Positions 7,334 through 15,674 of a DNA stretch of 46,805 nt are shown in pieces; position 1 is the stretch's first letter, and every line of letters starts with the position of its first letter. Source of the stretch: an uncultured Porphyromonadaceae bacterium (GTDB lineage Bacteria; Bacteroidota; Bacteroidia; Bacteroidales; UBA12481); contig CAYUGX010000001.1 in the NCBI GenBank assembly GCA_964444375.1, forward strand, positions 5,686-52,490. The letters are read 5' to 3'. The position numbers were made by a program, and so were the translations under genes. Below the pieces are notes generated by a model. That model saw only the letters and a program-made list of their open reading frames with translations. It ran no database searches and had not been told where the DNA came from.

Positions 7334-7954
7334 ATGATATGGATTCGAAAAACCATCTTGGGTGTAAGCCTATTCTGTTGCTTTGCCCTTACCGGCCAGG
7401 CCCAGAATTTTACTTTTACGCTCAACCAACCATCTTCATTGATCGTTGATGCTGGCCCCGACACTACCATTCTGAAGGGAAATAGCATCCGCTTGGGTGG
7501 AAATCCGACTGCCCTTGAAGGATACGGCAGCTATGTATATTCCTGGTCGCCTGTCACAGGCTTAGATGATCCCACAGCTGCCAATCCTATTGCCACTCCT
7601 CTTGAAGAAACGACTTATATTTTGACCGTGATTGATGATAATAATTGTCAACAGCAGGACGAAATCACTGTAGGGGTTGACGCAAGCGGAATTATTGAAT
7701 GGGATTTGGAAGAGTCGATCGCTATTTACCCAAATCCCAATCCTGGAATCCTCCACATCAGATTCATAAAGCCGGTACGATTACCTACTATTAAAATATA
7801 CTCGATGCTCGGTGAGCTTCTTTGGCAAAAGAAATTTCAAGGGCTTGGTTCAGGTCAGGTTGAAGTTGATTTGTCTGCTTATTCTACCGGACTGTACCTG
7901 ATTAGTGTCTCAGCAAATAACCAGCAAACCATTCGTAGAGTGTTATTGCTCTAA
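7334..7954 (+). CDS. T9SS C-terminal sorting domain-containing secreted protein
   Basis: It has a signal peptide (CCFALTGQAQ) and the motif VDAGPDTTILKGNSIRLGGNP...YSWSPVTGL...TYILTVIDDNNC, which is common in Bacteroidota surface proteins. The CTD reads IAIYPNPNPGILHIRF...GLYLISVSANNQQTIRRVLLL. Confidence 0.75.
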   Translation: MIWIRKTILGVSLFCCFALTGQAQNFTFTLNQPSSLIVDAGPDTTILKGNSIRLGGNPTALEGYGSYVYSWSPVTGLDDPTAANPIATPLEETTYILTVIDDNNCQQQDEITVGVDASGIIEWDLEESIAIYPNPNPGILHIRFIKPVRLPTIKIYSMLGELLWQKKFQGLGSGQVEVDLSAYSTGLYLISVSANNQQTIRRVLLL

Positions 7955-7960
7955 ACCACA

Positions 7961-10711
7961 ATGATCAAATTCAACAGACATCCATATCGAATTTGTTTGC
8001 TATGCAGTTTGCTACTGTTTATGGCCCTCGGCCTTCAGGCACAAGACCAGCGCTTGAAACAATATGGTAACAGCATAAAGGTTGTGGCCAACACTGCAGT
8101 TACCTTATACGCTGGTGATTACCGGGGCACATTGATGTGGCAAGAGTCGTACAACGGCCAATCCTGGGTAGAGATTAGTGGTCAAAACCGCGACAGTCTT
8201 CAAACAACTATTATTACTCAGGTCTTTTATCGAGTGGGTGTCAAAGAAGTAAACTGCGATTGGCTATTTGCCCCAGCAATTGAATATGAGTTGATCATAT
8301 TGCCAACCGTATTAACCAATTCTCCTGAGAATATCAGTAGTCGTTCGATTGAAATCAGAGGTCAGGTTACAGATCCAGGTAATGGATCGATCAGTAGTAG
8401 AGGATTCTGTTTAGATAGCCTGGTCAATCCTGACACCAGCAAGCAGCGAATCAATCTGGGATCCGGATCAGGTCACTTTAGTTCAGTTATTGGTTCACTT
8501 GAGCCGGGTACCGACTATTTTGTACGCGCCTTTGCCCAAAATGAGGCCGGATTGAGTTATGGGATCAGTCAAGCATTCACCACACTGGTTGAAGTTCCCC
8601 AACTTGAAACCCTCGATCCAGTTGCCATTAGCGATACGGTTATTCAAATTGGTGGCCAGATACACTCGAACGGAGGTGATCAAATAACAAGTAAGGGGAT
8701 TTGCTGGGCAAGCTCTCAAAATCCGGATACCAGCCAACAATACACTGCTGAAGGGGCTGGATCAAATTCTTTTATTTCAACGATTACGGGCTTATCACCG
8801 AATACACGGTATTATTTCAGGGCCTATGCCATCAATTCAGCCGGGATCAGCTATGGCAATTCGATCCAGGCCATCACGCAGATCGGATTGGCCAAGGTGA
8901 ACACACTTACCCCAACTGACCAAAGCACTAGCACCGTGATGGCAGGTGGCGAAATTACGCATACGGGCGGCGGATACATCAATGACAAAGGCTTATGCTG
9001 GGGGATTAGTTCTGATCCCACTTTGAGCGATTCAACAGCATCTCTGGGTCAGGGTAATGCTCCTTTTACTCTTCAAATTGAACACCTGGTACCCAACACT
9101 GAATATTTCATCCGAGCTTATGCCACCAATCAGGCAGGAGTGGCGTATGGACAAAATCAATCATTCACTACACGGGTTGATTTAGCCACAATACAAACTC
9201 TGGCTGCGACTGATGTTGGCCAGGATAGTGCAAAATTACATGCCTCTGTTGATTACGATGGATATGGTACACTCCTATTCAATGGATTCTGTTGGGATAC
9301 GGTAAGCAATCCGGATACGACAAAACAACACATTAAACTGGCTGGTCAATTAGGTCAATATAGCCAGGTCATTAGAGGATTATCAGCAAATACAAATTAT
9401 TTCTTCAGATCATTTACGGCCAATGAAGCCGGGCTGGTATATGGTGGTCAACAAAGTTTTACCACTTTGCCTGGCCCTCCTGTGTTAGGAGCAATTGACA
9501 GTCTCCACCTGACTGACCACAGCGTCATAATCCAATCAAGCGTAGTAAATACCAGTGGTTTAGTGGTTGATACAGCCGGATTTTGTTGGGCCCTGACCCC
9601 CATGCCTGATACCAGTGATCACCTATTCTTTGCATCATTGAATGCTGAGTTGCAATTCGAAGGGCTGTTAGATACCTTAAGTGCTAATACAAGCTATTAC
9701 ATCCGGGCCTTCGCAACAAACGCCGGTGGCATCAACTATTCTGAAGATTTTTCCATCACCACAAAAGAAACTGGATATCATGTTCTGCAAGCCAGTCTGG
9801 GCTGGCATGTTCGAAACAATTTCAGAGGTTGGAAAAATGTATTTCCACTTCATGGCAATTTGGGTAATGGGTATTCTGGAATAACCCTAAACTGGGACGA
9901 AGACATACTATATATTGTCGGGAATAATGCAAAAGCCGTATGGGCCGTTCATGCTCCGGGCAGTGACGAGTGGGATGAAACCAATCTGAATAGCAACCAC
10001 ATCAAGACCATCCCCTTAAATGGATACGTTGATCCAGAAGGTATTAACTATTTGGGAAATGGCTGGTTCATGTTGGCCGATGAGGGATTAAGAGAGGTCT
10101 CATTTGTTCAAATAACCTCAGAAACCACCCAGATAAACAAAAATGACGAAGGCCTGATTGTGGATCCTACCCCGCTGTTTCCCAGTTCTCATGGAGCTAA
10201 TTCAAATAGGCGATTGGAGGGTATAGCCTATGATTTCCACCACCAGTATATCTATGGGATTTGTGAAAAAGGAGTTGATGATCATCCCAGGTTGTACCGA
10301 TGGAAATGGAAATTCGATGAACAGGTAATCGATCCCACCTCTGGTGAAGAAGTCACCGATATATTTAATGGCCTTAGTGATCAATGGATTGAAGGCAGTG
10401 ACCTCTTTTATCACCCTTTATTGCAAAGATTGTATGTATTGAGTGGGTTCGACGATAAAATGGCTGAGTACTATTGTCCACATCCAGATACTACCGGCTA
10501 TGGACAATTTATCAGCCAACGACAACTACCCCGGAGCAACGGAACCACAGGGGACGTATTGGGCGATTGCGAAGGCATTTGTCTGTCACCTGACGGATTG
10601 ACCTTGTACCTGGTTTACGAGGACCGAAGCTTTGGATATGGTCCAGTTCCTTTCATCTGGTATTATCCAGAAAATAACCTGCCGGCCACATTGTTTCCGT
10701 TCTCGAGGTAA
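7961..10711 (+). CDS. large secreted protein: N-terminal Ig-like region, five 98-aa FN3-like repeats, and a C-terminal SdiA-regulated/YjiK-like beta-propeller-type domain
   Basis: It has a signal peptide (LLLFMALGLQAQ). The repeats carry G[FIL]CW...NPDTS...Y[FY][FI]RA[FY]A.N.AG..YG....FTT. The C-terminal region has RLEGIAYD and CEGICLSPDGLTLYLV, which I recall from the SdiA-regulated family. It starts 6 nt after the upstream gene, so co-transcription is likely. Confidence 0.8.
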   Translation: MIKFNRHPYRICLLCSLLLFMALGLQAQDQRLKQYGNSIKVVANTAVTLYAGDYRGTLMWQESYNGQSWVEISGQNRDSLQTTIITQVFYRVGVKEVNCDWLFAPAIEYELIILPTVLTNSPENISSRSIEIRGQVTDPGNGSISSRGFCLDSLVNPDTSKQRINLGSGSGHFSSVIGSLEPGTDYFVRAFAQNEAGLSYGISQAFTTLVEVPQLETLDPVAISDTVIQIGGQIHSNGGDQITSKGICWASSQNPDTSQQYTAEGAGSNSFISTITGLSPNTRYYFRAYAINSAGISYGNSIQAITQIGLAKVNTLTPTDQSTSTVMAGGEITHTGGGYINDKGLCWGISSDPTLSDSTASLGQGNAPFTLQIEHLVPNTEYFIRAYATNQAGVAYGQNQSFTTRVDLATIQTLAATDVGQDSAKLHASVDYDGYGTLLFNGFCWDTVSNPDTTKQHIKLAGQLGQYSQVIRGLSANTNYFFRSFTANEAGLVYGGQQSFTTLPGPPVLGAIDSLHLTDHSVIIQSSVVNTSGLVVDTAGFCWALTPMPDTSDHLFFASLNAELQFEGLLDTLSANTSYYIRAFATNAGGINYSEDFSITTKETGYHVLQASLGWHVRNNFRGWKNVFPLHGNLGNGYSGITLNWDEDILYIVGNNAKAVWAVHAPGSDEWDETNLNSNHIKTIPLNGYVDPEGINYLGNGWFMLADEGLREVSFVQITSETTQINKNDEGLIVDPTPLFPSSHGANSNRRLEGIAYDFHHQYIYGICEKGVDDHPRLYRWKWKFDEQVIDPTSGEEVTDIFNGLSDQWIEGSDLFYHPLLQRLYVLSGFDDKMAEYYCPHPDTTGYGQFISQRQLPRSNGTTGDVLGDCEGICLSPDGLTLYLVYEDRSFGYGPVPFIWYYPENNLPATLFPFSR
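8303..9766 (+). repeat. five tandem coding repeats with an exact 98-aa (294-nt) period
   Basis: The conserved Cys of the G-x-C-W motif falls at residues 150, 248, 346, 444 and 542 by manual count, which is exactly 98 aa apart each time. Confidence 0.85.
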
Positions 10712-10729
10712 GCACTAGTTATTGCCGAT

Positions 10730-10762
10730 GTACAATTCACCCCGTTGAACGTACAGTTCACC
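10730..10762 (+). promoter_or_regulatory. candidate LytTR-regulator binding site: two 12-bp direct repeats with a 21-bp period
   Basis: gtacaattcacc (10730-10741) and gtacagttcacc (10751-10762) are identical at 11 of 12 positions. The core 9-mers ACAATTCAC and ACAGTTCAC are separated by exactly 12 bp. ACAGTTCAC fits 8 of 9 positions of the LytTR consensus [TA][AC][CA]GTTN[AG][TG] as I recall it. Confidence 0.45.
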
Positions 10763-10794
10763 AGATTTCTCTTTTCACCCCTATTACCTGGGCA

Positions 10795-10802
10795 TACATT
10801 TG
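10795..10802 (+). promoter_or_regulatory. -7 box TACATTTG for the 10819-15585 operon, with no recognisable -33 element
   Basis: It is a perfect TAnnTTTG, 16 nt upstream of the ATG at 10819. The region where a -33 TTG is expected (about 10770-10777) reads tcttttca. Confidence 0.45.
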
Positions 10803-10818
10803 AACCAAAATTAGAATA

Positions 10819-11469
10819 ATGGTTCATCCGATAATGCTTTCGATACTTAGTTTCTTCTCGATATTCTCATTGCCATCAGATAGATCAACAAAGTGGGAGA
10901 CGGTTTTCATCCGGGAGGAGATTATCATCAAGGAGAGGTGGATTACAAATCTTACAGGTGAAAAGACTCGTGAGCGAAGAGCTGAGTTTTTGGTTGAAGC
11001 AAAGGCCAAAGTAGTCACAGAACTACTCAGGCAAGATCACTTTAACAAGTGCTGGATGGGAAATGTTGACCGATTTCATTCCTTTGGGAAATCATCACCC
11101 AACCAGTGGATCAGCTACACCGTATACGCCATTCCATGGCCGTTTAAGAAACAAGATTTGCTGTCTGAATACACCCTTAGCCAGGATCAATATGAGAAAA
11201 ACTACTACATCCAGGTCAAAGGACTTGACCAAACTCCAGCTCAATTACGGGCTCTCATTGGTGTGAATAGGAAATACAAGCGATTGAGTAATTATCGGGC
11301 AGAATGGCACATCAAAGAAACAGAGCAAGGCCGCTCACGAGTTGTATTTACCGCCAGTTCAACTGATCCTCCACCTTTTCCCCGCTGGATGATGGATCCA
11401 GTTTTGGTTCGCCTGTTTGCTGACAATTTCTCACGATTTAAGAATGAAATTGAAGGTCTGCAACCATGA
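10819..11469 (+). CDS. START/SRPBCC-like lipid-binding domain protein
   Basis: 216 aa. The segment ISYTVYAIPWPFKKQDLL resembles the START-domain PWP(v/l)s.RD segment. The N-terminus is hydrophobic. The stop overlaps the next start (ATGA). The family call is moderate. Confidence 0.6.
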   Translation: MVHPIMLSILSFFSIFSLPSDRSTKWETVFIREEIIIKERWITNLTGEKTRERRAEFLVEAKAKVVTELLRQDHFNKCWMGNVDRFHSFGKSSPNQWISYTVYAIPWPFKKQDLLSEYTLSQDQYEKNYYIQVKGLDQTPAQLRALIGVNRKYKRLSNYRAEWHIKETEQGRSRVVFTASSTDPPPFPRWMMDPVLVRLFADNFSRFKNEIEGLQP

Positions 11470-11927
11470 AAAAGATAATGACTTTTATAGCCAAACCGTA
11501 TCGCAAACTGTTGCAGGTAGAAGCTGATCCCAGGAAGGTTGCCGGTGGATTTGCCCTCGGTTCATTTATCGGGATGACTCCCTTTGTGGGCATGCAGATA
11601 TTGATTTCTGTCAGCATTGCAAGCCTGGCTAAATGGAATAAAATTGCCGCCGGCCTTGGGGTGTTCAATACTAACATGGCTACCGGTTTATTTGTATTCG
11701 GATTCAACTACTATCTGGGTAGTAAAATACTGGGGATTCAAAATGATTTCACGCTACCTGAGAAACTGAATATTAGTTTTATAGGACAGGTATTCGAGGC
11801 TGGTTTTGAAGTATTTGCCGCTTTACTTATTGGTGGAATTATTACAGGGATTCCCTTTGCACTCACCGTTTATTACTTACTATATCGCCTTTTAAAAAAC
11901 AGAAATCTCAAAAGAAATGAAGCATAA
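11466..11927 (+). CDS. DUF2062-family membrane protein
   Basis: PRKVAGGFALGSFIGMTPFVGMQILISV is the characteristic DUF2062 opening. Further TM segments follow. It overlaps both neighbours. Confidence 0.7.
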   Translation: MKKIMTFIAKPYRKLLQVEADPRKVAGGFALGSFIGMTPFVGMQILISVSIASLAKWNKIAAGLGVFNTNMATGLFVFGFNYYLGSKILGIQNDFTLPEKLNISFIGQVFEAGFEVFAALLIGGIITGIPFALTVYYLLYRLLKNRNLKRNEA

Positions 11928-12729
11928 GCATTCATTCGCGCTCATCACTGGTGCCAGCCAGGGATTGGGAAAAGCCTTCTCAAAAGAGCTGGCCGAACAG
12001 GGGTATAATCTTTTGTTATCAGCTTTACCAGGCGAGGGATTGGAAGCCTGGGCACGCTTACTTTGCGAACAATACCAGATTACGGCGCTGTTGCATGAAA
12101 CAGATCTGGCTCAAAGCTCGGCTCAGATTGATCTGGCTAACTGGGCATCGGCTTACCCTGTTCAGGTCGTGATCAATAATGCCGGAATTGGAGGAACTAT
12201 GCCTTATGAATCGGCCACTACAGACTACTTGAATCGCATTATTCAGGTCAATGTGACTGCTCCGGCAATTTTGATCAACCGATTGTTGCCTGTTTTGAAA
12301 GAGCATGAACAGGCCTACGTGCTTAATGTATCGAGCATGGCAGCTTTTAGTCCGATGGCCTACAAAACAGTATATCCAGCCTCAAAAGCTTTCGTTTGGT
12401 CTTTCAGCCGGGGTTTGTATCAGGAATTGCGGGAGCAAGGAATTTTTGTTGGAGTCGTTCATCCCGGACCCATCAAGACGAATCCGGACGTTTGCCGACG
12501 AATTGAAAAACAAAAACTATTCGGGAGACTAGGTCTGGTCAGTCCAGACCGACTGGCAAAGGTGGCTATCCGTCAGTTGTTCAATCAGGATCCCTTGCTA
12601 ATACCTGGAATTCTCAACAAGGTCAATTGGGCGATGATGAAGATAGTGCCGATCTGGATTCGGATGGGAGTATTGGCCAAAGTGGTTCAACGAGAGATTG
12701 ACGAACCAAAAGAATACATTTTATCTTAA
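11917..12729 (+). CDS. classical short-chain dehydrogenase/reductase (SDR)
   Basis: ALITGASQGLGKAF is the TGxxxGxG motif, NNAG is present, and YPASK is the catalytic YxxxK. Confidence 0.85.
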   Translation: MKHKHSFALITGASQGLGKAFSKELAEQGYNLLLSALPGEGLEAWARLLCEQYQITALLHETDLAQSSAQIDLANWASAYPVQVVINNAGIGGTMPYESATTDYLNRIIQVNVTAPAILINRLLPVLKEHEQAYVLNVSSMAAFSPMAYKTVYPASKAFVWSFSRGLYQELREQGIFVGVVHPGPIKTNPDVCRRIEKQKLFGRLGLVSPDRLAKVAIRQLFNQDPLLIPGILNKVNWAMMKIVPIWIRMGVLAKVVQREIDEPKEYILS

Positions 12730-12739
12730 AAAACACAGT

Positions 12740-13756
12740 ATGAAAGTACTTGTCACAGGTGCCAATGGATTTTTGGGTGCCAATATAGTTGCCATGTTGA
12801 ACCAACATGGTGTTTCAGTTCGGGCATTCATGCGATCCTCTGCCAATCAACTGGGACTAACAGGATGTACTTTTGAGCCCTGTTATGGTGACATTACAAA
12901 GGTTGAGGATGTGAATAAAGCGCTTGTTGGATGTGACTATGTGATCCACGCTGCAGCTTGTACCGGACCCAGCCCAAATGATTATAATCACTACTTCCCT
13001 GTGAATGTAATGGGAACTCGCCACCTTCTAGCAGCTTGTCAACAGGCATCATGCAAACGCCTTGTGTTCATCAGCTCGGCCAACACCATTGGTTTTGGCA
13101 ATCTGCTGCATCCCGGTCATGAAGAATTACCATTGAGTGAACCCTTTCGGTCATCCGGTTATGCTTTGACCAAATTAGAGGCCGAATTTAACATCCAGGC
13201 GGCAGTTGATCGAGGTCAGCTGGATGCGGTTATTCTCAATCCCGCCTTTATGATTGGTTCACGTGATCACAAGCCTAGCTCAGGTCGATTGCTGCTTTCG
13301 ATGGCCAGGTCAAATCCAGTTCTCCTTCCCCCTGGTGGAAAAAGCTTTGTCCACGTCAACGATGTGGCATTAGCCAGTTTATCTGCCTTGCATCGGGGAG
13401 AAGCTGGGAAGTGCTATTTGTTGGCTAACCAAAATCTGAGTTATCACGATTTCTTCAACCAGGTGTATCAAATTCGTGGTAAGTCTCGTCAGGCTTGGAT
13501 ACTCTCTGAAGGATTCACAAAAATGCTGGGTGCCCTGGGATCCGGATTTGAGCATTTAGGCTTCAAACAAGACTTGAACTCAATTAATGCCAATCTTCTA
13601 TGTATTAAAAATTATTATTCAGGTCAACTGGCGAGTTCTACATTCGGATTTCAATATACACCAATCAGTCAAGCGATTGAGGAAGCTATAGCATGGTTTT
13701 CAAATAATGGATACCTTAACAGTCAAAAAACACCTCAACATCTTCGTTATGCCTAA
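12740..13756 (+). CDS. extended-SDR NAD(P)-dependent reductase/epimerase (3-beta-HSD / dihydroflavonol-reductase-like)
   Basis: MKVLVTGANGFLGANIV is the Rossmann motif and YALTK is YxxxK. I start at the ATG at 12740 rather than the track start at 12698, which overlaps the SDR gene. Confidence 0.85.
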   Translation: MKVLVTGANGFLGANIVAMLNQHGVSVRAFMRSSANQLGLTGCTFEPCYGDITKVEDVNKALVGCDYVIHAAACTGPSPNDYNHYFPVNVMGTRHLLAACQQASCKRLVFISSANTIGFGNLLHPGHEELPLSEPFRSSGYALTKLEAEFNIQAAVDRGQLDAVILNPAFMIGSRDHKPSSGRLLLSMARSNPVLLPPGGKSFVHVNDVALASLSALHRGEAGKCYLLANQNLSYHDFFNQVYQIRGKSRQAWILSEGFTKMLGALGSGFEHLGFKQDLNSINANLLCIKNYYSGQLASSTFGFQYTPISQAIEEAIAWFSNNGYLNSQKTPQHLRYA

Positions 13757-14855
13757 GCGAAATTACTTCTTTGTTAGACTGTTGGTTGTTTTTGTGGTTC
13801 ATCTGATTTTCAAGGTCGTTGATTTGTCATTTACCTCTGCTTTGGAACCCAGTCTTCGTTCTCTTGGGTTTTCAATATTCTTTATGATCTATTGGATGGG
13901 AGTATGGGAAGTGGCCAGATGGATCTATCGTAAACAGATGGGAAATTGGATTGGTAAACCCAAACAATATGGAAAACTGACCCTCGTATCTACCGTCATA
14001 TTGATTTTTGCCGTTCTCACCATTCTGATTTACAATTATTGGTACCTCCTATCTGATTATTTCATTTTCGGTAATACCTGGAATGATATTGCAGTGCTCA
14101 ATCCAGAGATCATGGGTGATTTCACCATCTTAAAGAGTTTGCGGATCAATCCTGAATTGTTTTACGGTCTGTTTTTGTTCATTATCCTGGCTTATGGAGT
14201 GATAATTTTCATTGAATTGTTCAATCATGTGAAAGAAATGGAGGTCAGCACGGCTCTTTTGCAACACGAAAACACCCATGCCAAATATCAGGCTTTGAAG
14301 AATCAGATTGATCCACATTTTTTTTTCAATAGTCTGAGTGTATTATCATCCTTAGTTCATGAAGATCCTGGCTTATCCTCTACCTACATCAGTCACTTAT
14401 CAAAACTGTATCGCAACATACTTGAAAGCGATACCGATCGATTGATTACCCTGCAAGAAGAACTGGCCATCCTTGAATCATACACTTTTCTGCTTCGAAT
14501 CCGTTTCCATGAAGCTTTTCAATTACACATTGAATTGAGTGAGGCCAGTAAAAATCAAGTAAGGGTTGTTCCACATGTGATGCAAATGCTCATTGAAAAT
14601 GCCCTGAAGCACAATTCCTTTTCAGCTGATGAACCCATCGATATTTACATCACTGAAAACTCTGATTCACTGATTGTTCGAAACGCACTGCGTGCAAAAC
14701 GCCTTCTGCAGCGAAGCACTCATGTGGGATTGAGTAACATTAAGAACCGCTACGCAATTGCCAGCGAATCTGAAGTTGAGGTAAGCACAGAAAATGGAGA
14801 ATTTATCGTTAAACTGCCTAAAATTACCCATGAATATTCTGATAATAGAAGATGA
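13749..14855 (+). CDS. LytS/YehU-type membrane sensor histidine kinase
   Basis: It has four N-terminal TM segments. NQIDPHFFFNSLSVLSSLV is the His_kinase domain phospho-acceptor region and MLIENALKHN is the N-box. The ATG at 13749 overlaps the previous stop by 8 nt. An alternative start is at 13707. Confidence 0.85.
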   Translation: MPKRNYFFVRLLVVFVVHLIFKVVDLSFTSALEPSLRSLGFSIFFMIYWMGVWEVARWIYRKQMGNWIGKPKQYGKLTLVSTVILIFAVLTILIYNYWYLLSDYFIFGNTWNDIAVLNPEIMGDFTILKSLRINPELFYGLFLFIILAYGVIIFIELFNHVKEMEVSTALLQHENTHAKYQALKNQIDPHFFFNSLSVLSSLVHEDPGLSSTYISHLSKLYRNILESDTDRLITLQEELAILESYTFLLRIRFHEAFQLHIELSEASKNQVRVVPHVMQMLIENALKHNSFSADEPIDIYITENSDSLIVRNALRAKRLLQRSTHVGLSNIKNRYAIASESEVEVSTENGEFIVKLPKITHEYSDNRR

Positions 14856-15585
14856 AAAGCGAACAGCTGATCAATTAAAAAGGTTGGTTATTCAGTTTGA
14901 TCCTCAATTCAAAGTGTTTGGACCTCTTGATTCTGTTGCGCGCGCAAAAGAATGGTTTACATCCCCTCCTGAGCTTATTGACTTGATCTTCTTAGATATT
15001 ATGCTGGCTGATGGTACATCATTCGAACTATTCGAAAGTATTAGCATTCAAATACCGGTCATTTTCATTACCGCGTACGATGAATATGCACTCCAGGCCT
15101 TCAAAGTTAATGCCGTCGATTACCTGCTGAAACCGGTTGACTACGAAGAGCTATCGCAAGCACTTAACAAGCTTGACCAAATGAAGCGCACACTTGGGCA
15201 TCACAATCATCATTGGATCAAATCATTACTCCATGGCAATGCACCTCTATATAAGAAAAGATTCCTGGTCAAATCAGGCGATTTGATTCAGTATATACTG
15301 GTGGATGACATTGGGTATTTCGAATACGACGAAGGATTGGTCTTTGCACATCTGCTGGATGGCAAACGTGTAATTATTGAGCACAGCCTGGATGATTTAG
15401 GTGAGCTCTTGGATCCGGCTCATTTTTTCAGAATAAACCGTAAAACAATTGTACACATAAAAGCCATCCGTAAAATACACCCCTATTTCAACCGCAGGCT
15501 ATCCGTCTACCTTGAGCCGGCCAATTACAATGCCACAGTAAGCCGTGAACGAGTGCAGCACTTCAAAGAATGGCTGGATCAGTAA
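14830..15585 (+). CDS. LytTR-family response regulator
   Basis: The receiver domain reads MNILIIEDE...LIFLDIMLADG...ITAYDEYALQAF. The C-terminal LytTR domain reads FFRINRKTIVHIKAIRKI. It overlaps the kinase gene by 26 nt. Confidence 0.9.
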   Translation: MNILIIEDEKRTADQLKRLVIQFDPQFKVFGPLDSVARAKEWFTSPPELIDLIFLDIMLADGTSFELFESISIQIPVIFITAYDEYALQAFKVNAVDYLLKPVDYEELSQALNKLDQMKRTLGHHNHHWIKSLLHGNAPLYKKRFLVKSGDLIQYILVDDIGYFEYDEGLVFAHLLDGKRVIIEHSLDDLGELLDPAHFFRINRKTIVHIKAIRKIHPYFNRRLSVYLEPANYNATVSRERVQHFKEWLDQ

Positions 15586-15674
15586 AGCCCTAGTTTTCTG
15601 CAAACAGTGAACAGAAAGCAGCCCAAGATGTGTTTCGTGACTTGTGATTCAACTGATAACTGATAACTGATAAC

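Follow-up and report, generated by a model that had tools for sequence, protein, structure and literature searches.

What would a bacterium gain from tying a putative lipid-binding protein, two reductases and a membrane sensor with its own response regulator to a single predicted promoter? The question is raised by positions 10819-15585 of the window (the whole stretch of 46,805 nucleotides that was analysed, taken from contig CAYUGX010000001.1 of assembly GCA_964444375.1, an uncultured Porphyromonadaceae bacterium whose genome is called G000 below), where the open reading frame coordinates and the junction sequences reveal six genes, all on the + strand. The best explanation, to which we give about an even chance, is that they form an autoregulated, signal-inducible operon processing a membrane-held neutral hydrophobic alcohol or ketone. 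The broader statement, that this is a regulated module for the redox modification of a hydrophobic substrate, is judged probable, and the narrower one, that the substrate is steroid-like in particular, is put forward tentatively. The six genes, termed g1-g6, are as follows (SDR, short-chain dehydrogenase/reductase; HSD, hydroxysteroid dehydrogenase):

g1, 10819-11469, + strand: START-domain protein, 216 aa; the alternative ATG at 10834 gives 211 aa
g2, 11466-11927, + strand: DUF2062 small inner-membrane protein, 153 aa
g3, 11917-12729, + strand: classical SDR, 270 aa, with a hydrophobic C-terminal helix
g4, 12740-13756, + strand: extended SDR of the HpnA/SdmB/3-beta-HSD-like carbonyl-reductase type, 338 aa from the ATG that begins MKVLVTGANG
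g5, 13749-14855, + strand: membrane histidine kinase, 368 aa, with a PF06580 (His_kinase) core behind a multi-helix, short-looped membrane domain at the N-terminus
g6, 14830-15585, + strand: response regulator, 251 aa, with receiver and LytTR DNA-binding domains

The successive junctions measure -4 (ATGA), -11, +10, -8 and -26 nt, exactly as had been listed in an earlier note on this DNA that was made from the letters alone. The largest internal gap in the operon is 10 nt, and the GC content is uniform over the region.

The SDR, the extended SDR, the kinase and the LytTR regulator were found in the same order at about 16 loci, with 35-66% identity and with unrelated flanks, and as far as the compared sequences tell, these four genes are the invariant core of the system. 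Operon carriers make up 7 of the 301 searched genomes of the order, G000 included, and together with G001 they represent five GTDB families; the hosts are environmental Bacteroidales and the occurrence is scattered. The gene set varies between loci in the following way:

All six genes in order (START, DUF2062, SDR, extended SDR, kinase, regulator): G001 (same genus, 47-76% identity), L019, L020, L032, G416, G539 and G551
Without DUF2062: L022, L024, L026, L028 and G585
Without START: G535 and G412
PagL-family outer-membrane protein replacing DUF2062: L039
SDR, extended SDR, START and DUF2062 differently ordered, the 8.7-kb contig lacking a two-component pair: L035

No relation was seen between the flanks of L019 and those of L020, or between either of them and the window. 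Not all of the loci are independent: L026 and L028 have the same upstream sequence, and the downstream gene of G585 (L132) is 99% identical to that of L026. The recurrence of one gene set at about 16 loci with unrelated flanks speaks for a conserved unit and not for a fortuitous juxtaposition. The earlier note had suggested checking whether the four enzyme or binding genes co-occur with the two-component pair; this holds for both SDRs, which are always there, and not for START and DUF2062, which these comparisons identify as frequent accessories, each dispensable and absent from some lineages. Two of the variants carry further envelope-related genes. In L039, which belongs to one Bacteroidota metagenome-assembled genome, positions 7625-8773 encode a predicted outer-membrane protein of 382 aa, scored at 47 bits for the PagL (lipid A 3-O-deacylase) domain, at the DUF2062 position of the operon. 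In L026 (11661-13193; also in L028 and L132, all one lineage), a gene 385 nt downstream of the LytTR gene, on the same strand, encodes an Lnt-like protein of 510 aa that has a CN_hydrolase domain and several membrane helices.

How is such a unit switched on? Two elements were recognized upstream of g1:

10730..10762, + strand: two 12-nt direct repeats, GTACAATTCACC (10730-10741) and GTACAGTTCACC (10751-10762), with starts 21 bp apart; predicted LytTR site
10795..10802, + strand: TACATTTG, a -7-type promoter element read from the sequence, 32 nt beyond the second repeat, 16 nt ahead of the ATG at 10819

The octamer TACATTTG fits TAnnTTTG, which we take to be the -7 element consensus of sigma-A promoters in Bacteroidota, and so marks a predicted promoter; a scan with the sigma-70 consensus was uninformative for this phylum. 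Two in-frame ATGs are available to g1: the public protein collection carries the 211-aa form starting at 10834 (P0007), and the -7 box at 10795-10802 would give the first ATG (10819) a leader of only ~11 nt. Similar 21-bp-spaced repeats ([GT]TACAAT[TC]C-like) are found upstream of the START gene in L013, L019, L022, L024, L026/L028 and L032; the operator is thus conserved in seven other loci, with L026 and L028, identical in their upstream sequence, counted as one lineage. Ahead of the START gene in variants without the two-component pair the spaced repeats were not found. Within the 4.76-Mb genome G000 the pair at 10730-10762 is the sole match when up to three mismatches are allowed. These repeats are probably the binding site of g6, the operon's own LytTR regulator, and since the operator pair is unique in the genome, the regulator appears to control its own operon only. 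The system thereby looks self-contained, positively autoregulated and closed, and the two-component pair, always kept with the SDRs and provided with a predicted LytTR-type operator upstream, can be regarded as a dedicated part of the conserved unit, as had been claimed.

In this respect the operon resembles the autoinduced LytTR operons that are already described (AgrA at agr P2/P3, LytSR and BtsSR), which likewise combine a regulator made of receiver and LytTR domains with a PF06580-type kinase, and in which paired direct repeats about two helical turns apart also lie just upstream of the operon's own promoter. The cargo is different: two reductases and lipid-handling proteins are found here instead of peptide-signal, holin or transporter genes.

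The START-like call for g1 falls below the Pfam cut-off when the protein is searched singly (19.1 bits on Polyketide_cyc2 against 27.4, with Pfam START not reached), and it was upheld by a family profile and by a structural model. An HMMER scan of 1.8 billion representatives gave 351 relatives, 144 of them at E < 1e-10 and nearly all of 200-250 aa; among aligned family members, 32 of 90 match Pfam START and 36 of 90 match Polyketide_cyc2. The profile built from 90 sequences of the family reached 3qsz, a Xanthomonas START structure, with an E value of 1.8e-33, followed by STARD10 (8.7e-15), PCTP (5.5e-10) and CERT (8e-5). The AlphaFold (AF2) model of g1 (predicted local distance difference test, pLDDT, 90.8; predicted template modelling score, pTM, 0.84) has nine strands and a 25-residue C-terminal helix (189-213), i.e., the sheet and long C-terminal helix of the helix-grip fold of START/SRPBCC proteins, and every one of its top Foldseek matches is a START domain (3qsz, CERT, STARD10, STARD4 and StAR, probability 1.00). 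By profile and predicted model, g1 is a long, eukaryote-type (nine-strand) protein of START fold that would bind lipid.

Of 130 full-length relatives of g1, 125 have an N-terminus resembling a signal peptide and only 5 a lipobox-like motif, from which it follows that the family is, as predicted from its N-termini, exported via a signal peptide. In a 2026 review of bacterial START proteins these are mostly short, seven-stranded and cytosolic, and the words "Bacteroid" and "signal peptide" occur nowhere in it. With 3QSZ of Xanthomonas axonopodis and with mammalian STARD10, PCTP and CERT, g1 shares the helix-grip fold, the nine strands and the long helix at the C-terminus; it differs from them by its N-terminal signal peptide and by having its gene beside reductases in one operon. 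More distant START relatives are present in 63 of 301 Bacteroidia genomes. At 20 of their loci with wide flanks, no SDR, DUF2062 or two-component gene stood nearby and no neighbour was shared among the loci, which indicates that the association with the operon is specific to one START subfamily.

The remaining assignments of the earlier note (DUF2062, SDR, extended SDR, His_kinase and LytTR) are all supported by profile searches. The g2 protein is a full-length DUF2062 (PF09835) match, with 106.9 bits against a cut-off of 27.4 over profile positions 3-145 of 147; it has hydrophobic segments and is encoded by the sole DUF2062 gene of G000. At 7558-8865 of L032, DUF2062 and the classical SDR form one continuous frame of 435 aa, a natural fusion in which both domains are whole. 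Since this fusion is in frame, the DUF2062 C-terminus and the SDR would lie on the same, cytoplasmic side, and the arrangement argues for DUF2062 and the classical SDR being physical partners. Another fused frame, START-DUF2062 in L019 (1439-2473, P0009, 344 aa), was rejected as linkage evidence, because it lacks the larger part of the C-terminal helix of START as well as residues 1-10 of DUF2062 and would invert the DUF2062 topology; a deletion or an artefact of assembly is the likelier cause. Compared with the DUF2062 proteins mentioned elsewhere (Brucella BspA and those of flexirubin clusters), g2 is likewise full-length, and the family is found in lipid and pigment clusters of Bacteroidota; it differs in being an optional partner of an SDR, to which it is fused in one genome.

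Both reductases retain the residues needed for catalysis. The g3 protein is a generic COG0300-like SDR (adh_short, 132 bits in Pfam), and its best named match is mycolate reductase with 132 bits against a cut-off of 380. In 14 orthologues it keeps G12-x-x-x-G16-x-G18, N87-N88-A89-G90, N112, S140, Y153 and K157 invariant, which is the motif set of classical SDRs. For g4 (Epimerase, 120 bits; 3Beta_HSD, 87.8 bits in Pfam) the invariant positions among 14 orthologues are G7, G10, R32, S112, Y141 and K145, as in extended SDRs, and R32 is presumably compatible with NADP(H) binding. No signal peptide was found in g3 or g4, and to judge from their sequences both look cytoplasmic and catalytically competent. 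The best solved relative of g4, aligned end to end, is 3wj7, an uncharacterised oxidoreductase. Its best named relatives, also aligned end to end, are HpnA, SdmB and OleD, with 197, 157 and 102 bits against curated equivalog cut-offs of 368 (TIGR03466), 600 (NF052578) and 580 (NF042422); the models of sugar-nucleotide enzymes fall well below these scores, GalE for example reaching 48 bits. These relatives act on triterpenoids or long-chain keto lipids and not on sugars, which may be counted in favour of a hydrophobic substrate. The likeness to the three named systems has its bounds: the scores stay well below the cut-offs, no cyclase was found in the host, and neither an SdmA nor an OleABC partner is present in the operon.

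The g6 protein combines Response_reg (54 bits) with LytTR (70 bits), and g5 matches His_kinase PF06580 with 78.7 bits against a cut-off of 25.2. Ahead of the PF06580 core g5 has hydrophobic segments at 5-32, 74-102 and 133-162, separated only by short loops. Its orthologues align over residues 25-360. Residues 1-177 gave no Pfam or NCBIfam match, and no LytS-type 5TM (5TMR-LYT) sensor domain was detected in them; thus, of the LytS-type kinase named in the earlier note, the PF06580 core stands and the LytS sensor domain does not, the sensor region of g5 being unlike any described LytS or 5TMR-LYT domain. Kinase-regulator paralogues with 31-48% identity were seen in L133, L134, L137 and L141, where they adjoin a ~790-aa CarboxypepD_reg/TonB-dependent-receptor-like barrel protein and not reductases.

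What, then, could the substrate be? The earlier note had listed a hopanoid or sterol-like lipid of the cell's own envelope among the candidates. This is now disfavoured, since squalene/oxidosqualene cyclase (PF13243) was not found in six operon-bearing genomes, i.e., G000 (95.6% complete) and G001, G416, G551, G585 and G412 (94-99% complete), which makes an endogenous hopanoid or sterol unlikely; as an endogenous substrate both were rejected. A carotenoid is not supported either. Contig C136 of G000 (L144) carries at 7417-10874 a phytoene/squalene-synthase-like gene and a CrtI-like amine oxidase gene beside an AraC-type regulator, so that the bacterium may make a carotenoid- or squalene-type isoprenoid; this pair is unlinked to the operon, and SQS_PSY was not found in the operon-bearing G416.

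Another lead is given by four sister loci in related Bacteroidales (L015, L038, L037 and L016), where the same START and extended-SDR families are joined to an SRD5A-type protein with scores of 216 bits against bacterial SRD5A (7c83), 142 against human SRD5A2 (7bw1) and only 53 against an enoyl-CoA reductase. In L038 the START gene is flanked by the extended SDR/SRD5A pair and, on its opposite side, by a g4 orthologue (44% identity). By association only, these loci point to exogenous steroid-like 3-hydroxy/3-oxo substrates. The arrangement in L015 (G019) occupies 7812-10188 and consists of an HpnA/SdmB-like extended SDR, an SRD5A-type steroid 5-alpha-reductase and an exported START protein; a MacB/FtsX-type ATP-binding cassette permease stands alongside the sister operon in L015 and L038.

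A related gene set is known from the same phylum, namely the bile-acid cluster of steroid 5-alpha-reductase (5AR) and 3-beta-HSDH in Parabacteroides merdae, Odoribacter and other Bacteroidota (PMC10382948). The pairing of an SRD5A-type reductase with a predicted 3-beta-HSD recurs in the four sister loci, and the g4 family is common to these and to the window's operon, the published cluster being likened by its description. In contrast to that cluster, the window's operon has neither SRD5A nor the flavin 5-beta-reductase, its hosts are environmental and not gut bacteria, and it adds a classical SDR, an exported START protein, DUF2062 and a dedicated two-component system.

An external source of the substrate is further favoured by the exported carrier, the dedicated inducible switch, the lack of any skeleton-building enzyme and the patchy distribution; presence in 7 of 301 genomes is more in keeping with an optional response than with a part of core lipid synthesis. 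We therefore lean towards a substrate from outside the cell rather than from its own envelope, most likely a steroid- or triterpenoid-like compound undergoing 3-hydroxy/3-oxo chemistry.

In the mechanism that we infer, and with it the ligand, the reaction directions and what the START and DUF2062 proteins do, the kinase, which has almost no extracytoplasmic loops, would sense the compound or its effect on the membrane inside the bilayer and would then phosphorylate the LytTR regulator. The regulator would occupy the 21-bp-spaced repeats at 10730-10762 and raise transcription of all six genes, its own included. The exported START protein may ferry the compound through the periplasm, the inner-membrane DUF2062 protein may hold or assist the classical SDR at the cytoplasmic face, and this SDR and the HpnA/3-beta-HSD-like extended SDR would carry out two NAD(P)(H)-dependent conversions between hydroxyl and keto groups. 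In outline this agrees with the self-contained inducible module proposed earlier, one that binds and redox-modifies a hydrophobic envelope molecule; the proposal is corrected as to which genes form the core, as to START being exported while the SDRs are cytoplasmic, and as to the likely origin of the substrate.

Several observations weigh against this reading. Every named-family match of g3 and g4 lies far under its curated cut-off. The window's operon contains no SRD5A, and the only PF02544 match of G000 is a DUF1295-type protein on another contig. With the g1 family profile StAR reaches an E value of only 0.059, which places the START family nearer to phospholipid and ceramide carriers (STARD10, PCTP, CERT) than to sterol carriers. 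Kinase paralogues at 31-40% identity adjoin a TonB-dependent-receptor-like gene, and the sensor family may read a general envelope cue. The PagL-like gene inside the operon and the Lnt-like gene downstream of it, one lineage each, hint at the cell's own envelope lipids, as do the DUF2062 genes contained in flexirubin clusters. Part of this would be accommodated if an envelope-stress signal caused the two reductases to alter a keto or hydroxyl group on a lipid of the bacterium's own membrane (a hydroxy-fatty-acyl lipid, a sphingolipid- or sulfonolipid-type base, a carotenoid or a pigment lipid), with START and DUF2062 moving this lipid between the inner and outer membranes. Besides the flexirubin clusters, such an account can draw on the PagL-family protein located between START and SDR in L039, the Lnt-like CN_hydrolase protein downstream in L026, L028 and L132, the closeness of the START profile to the two-tailed-lipid carriers STARD10, PCTP and CERT, the rank of mycolate reductase as best named relative of g3 (132 bits) and the phytoene/squalene-synthase-like gene adjoining the CrtI-like oxidase in G000. 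However, an operon present in only 7 of 301 genomes of the order would be an oddity among core envelope functions, it includes neither a lipid-building nor a transferase gene, the PagL-like and Lnt-like neighbours are each limited to one lineage, SQS_PSY was not found in G416, and with no cyclase found in the six genomes hopanoids and sterols are counted as excluded as endogenous substrates. We regard modification of an own lipid as a possible but rather unlikely explanation.

The regulatory part of the operon invites a different account, in which the reductases finish a hydrophobic signal, START exports or presents it, the kinase senses it and LytTR closes a positive feedback, as in quorum sensing. 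Agr- and Com-type LytTR systems and hydroxyketone signalling are the analogues. The apparent autoregulation of the operon, whose LytTR operator has no second copy in the genome, the membrane-embedded kinase sensor and the constant company of enzymes and sensor would all suit such a circuit, yet no synthase for the signal backbone is present, and the operator search of G000 gave no target genes beyond the operon itself, so that the circuit would control nothing else; moreover, we know of nothing comparable in Bacteroidota. A lipid-signal circuit is therefore considered very unlikely. That the enzyme genes and the two-component pair are chance neighbours without a functional link is scarcely credible: L035, where SDR, extended SDR, START and DUF2062 stand in another order and the 8.7-kb contig has no two-component pair, could be cited for it, but it is contradicted by the conserved order of the four-gene core, by the overlaps of adjacent reading frames and by the conserved operator. 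The reading preferred here remains that of an autoregulated operon for a hydrophobic alcohol or ketone.

The surroundings of the operon in the window are unrelated to it. Upstream lies the gene for a secreted 916-aa FN3/SdiA-regulated-like protein, and downstream a convergent M14 peptidase gene, separated from g6 by 89 nt. No convincing hairpin of an intrinsic terminator was found in this gap (z-score +1.28); at its end a short tandem repeat (AACTGAT three times, then AAC) occupies 15651-15674.

A search of the literature (DUF2062; START with SDR in Bacteroidetes; LytTR with START) returned no published description of the operon, in agreement with the earlier note, whose author knew of no described system of such composition. 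It is akin to two known kinds, the regulated operons for lipid or steroid redox chemistry and the autoregulated LytTR operons. There is hardly any account of long, exported START domains from bacteria, and the operon places one in a regulated two-enzyme context that gives a direct way to its ligand. For DUF2062 it offers a testable partner, the membrane-associated SDR. A Bacteroidota LytTR system with a predicted operator and a small closed regulon would also be useful for learning what a large and mostly uncharacterised family of kinases senses.

The most far-reaching proposal, which we consider improbable at present, is that the START/extended-SDR/SDR loci together with the SRD5A sister loci encode the enzymes of sterol uptake and hydrogenation in anaerobic environmental Bacteroidales. 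The route would lead from stenol through 4-en-3-one and 5-alpha-stanone to 5-alpha-stanol, and from the window's operon would come the 3-hydroxyl/3-oxo steps, a sterol carrier for the periplasm and a switch responding to sterols. The conversion of stenols to stanols in anoxic sediments has long been used as a geochemical redox marker, and its microbial agents are poorly known. If the steroid lead is true, genes for sterol transformation by environmental anaerobes would thereby be identified.

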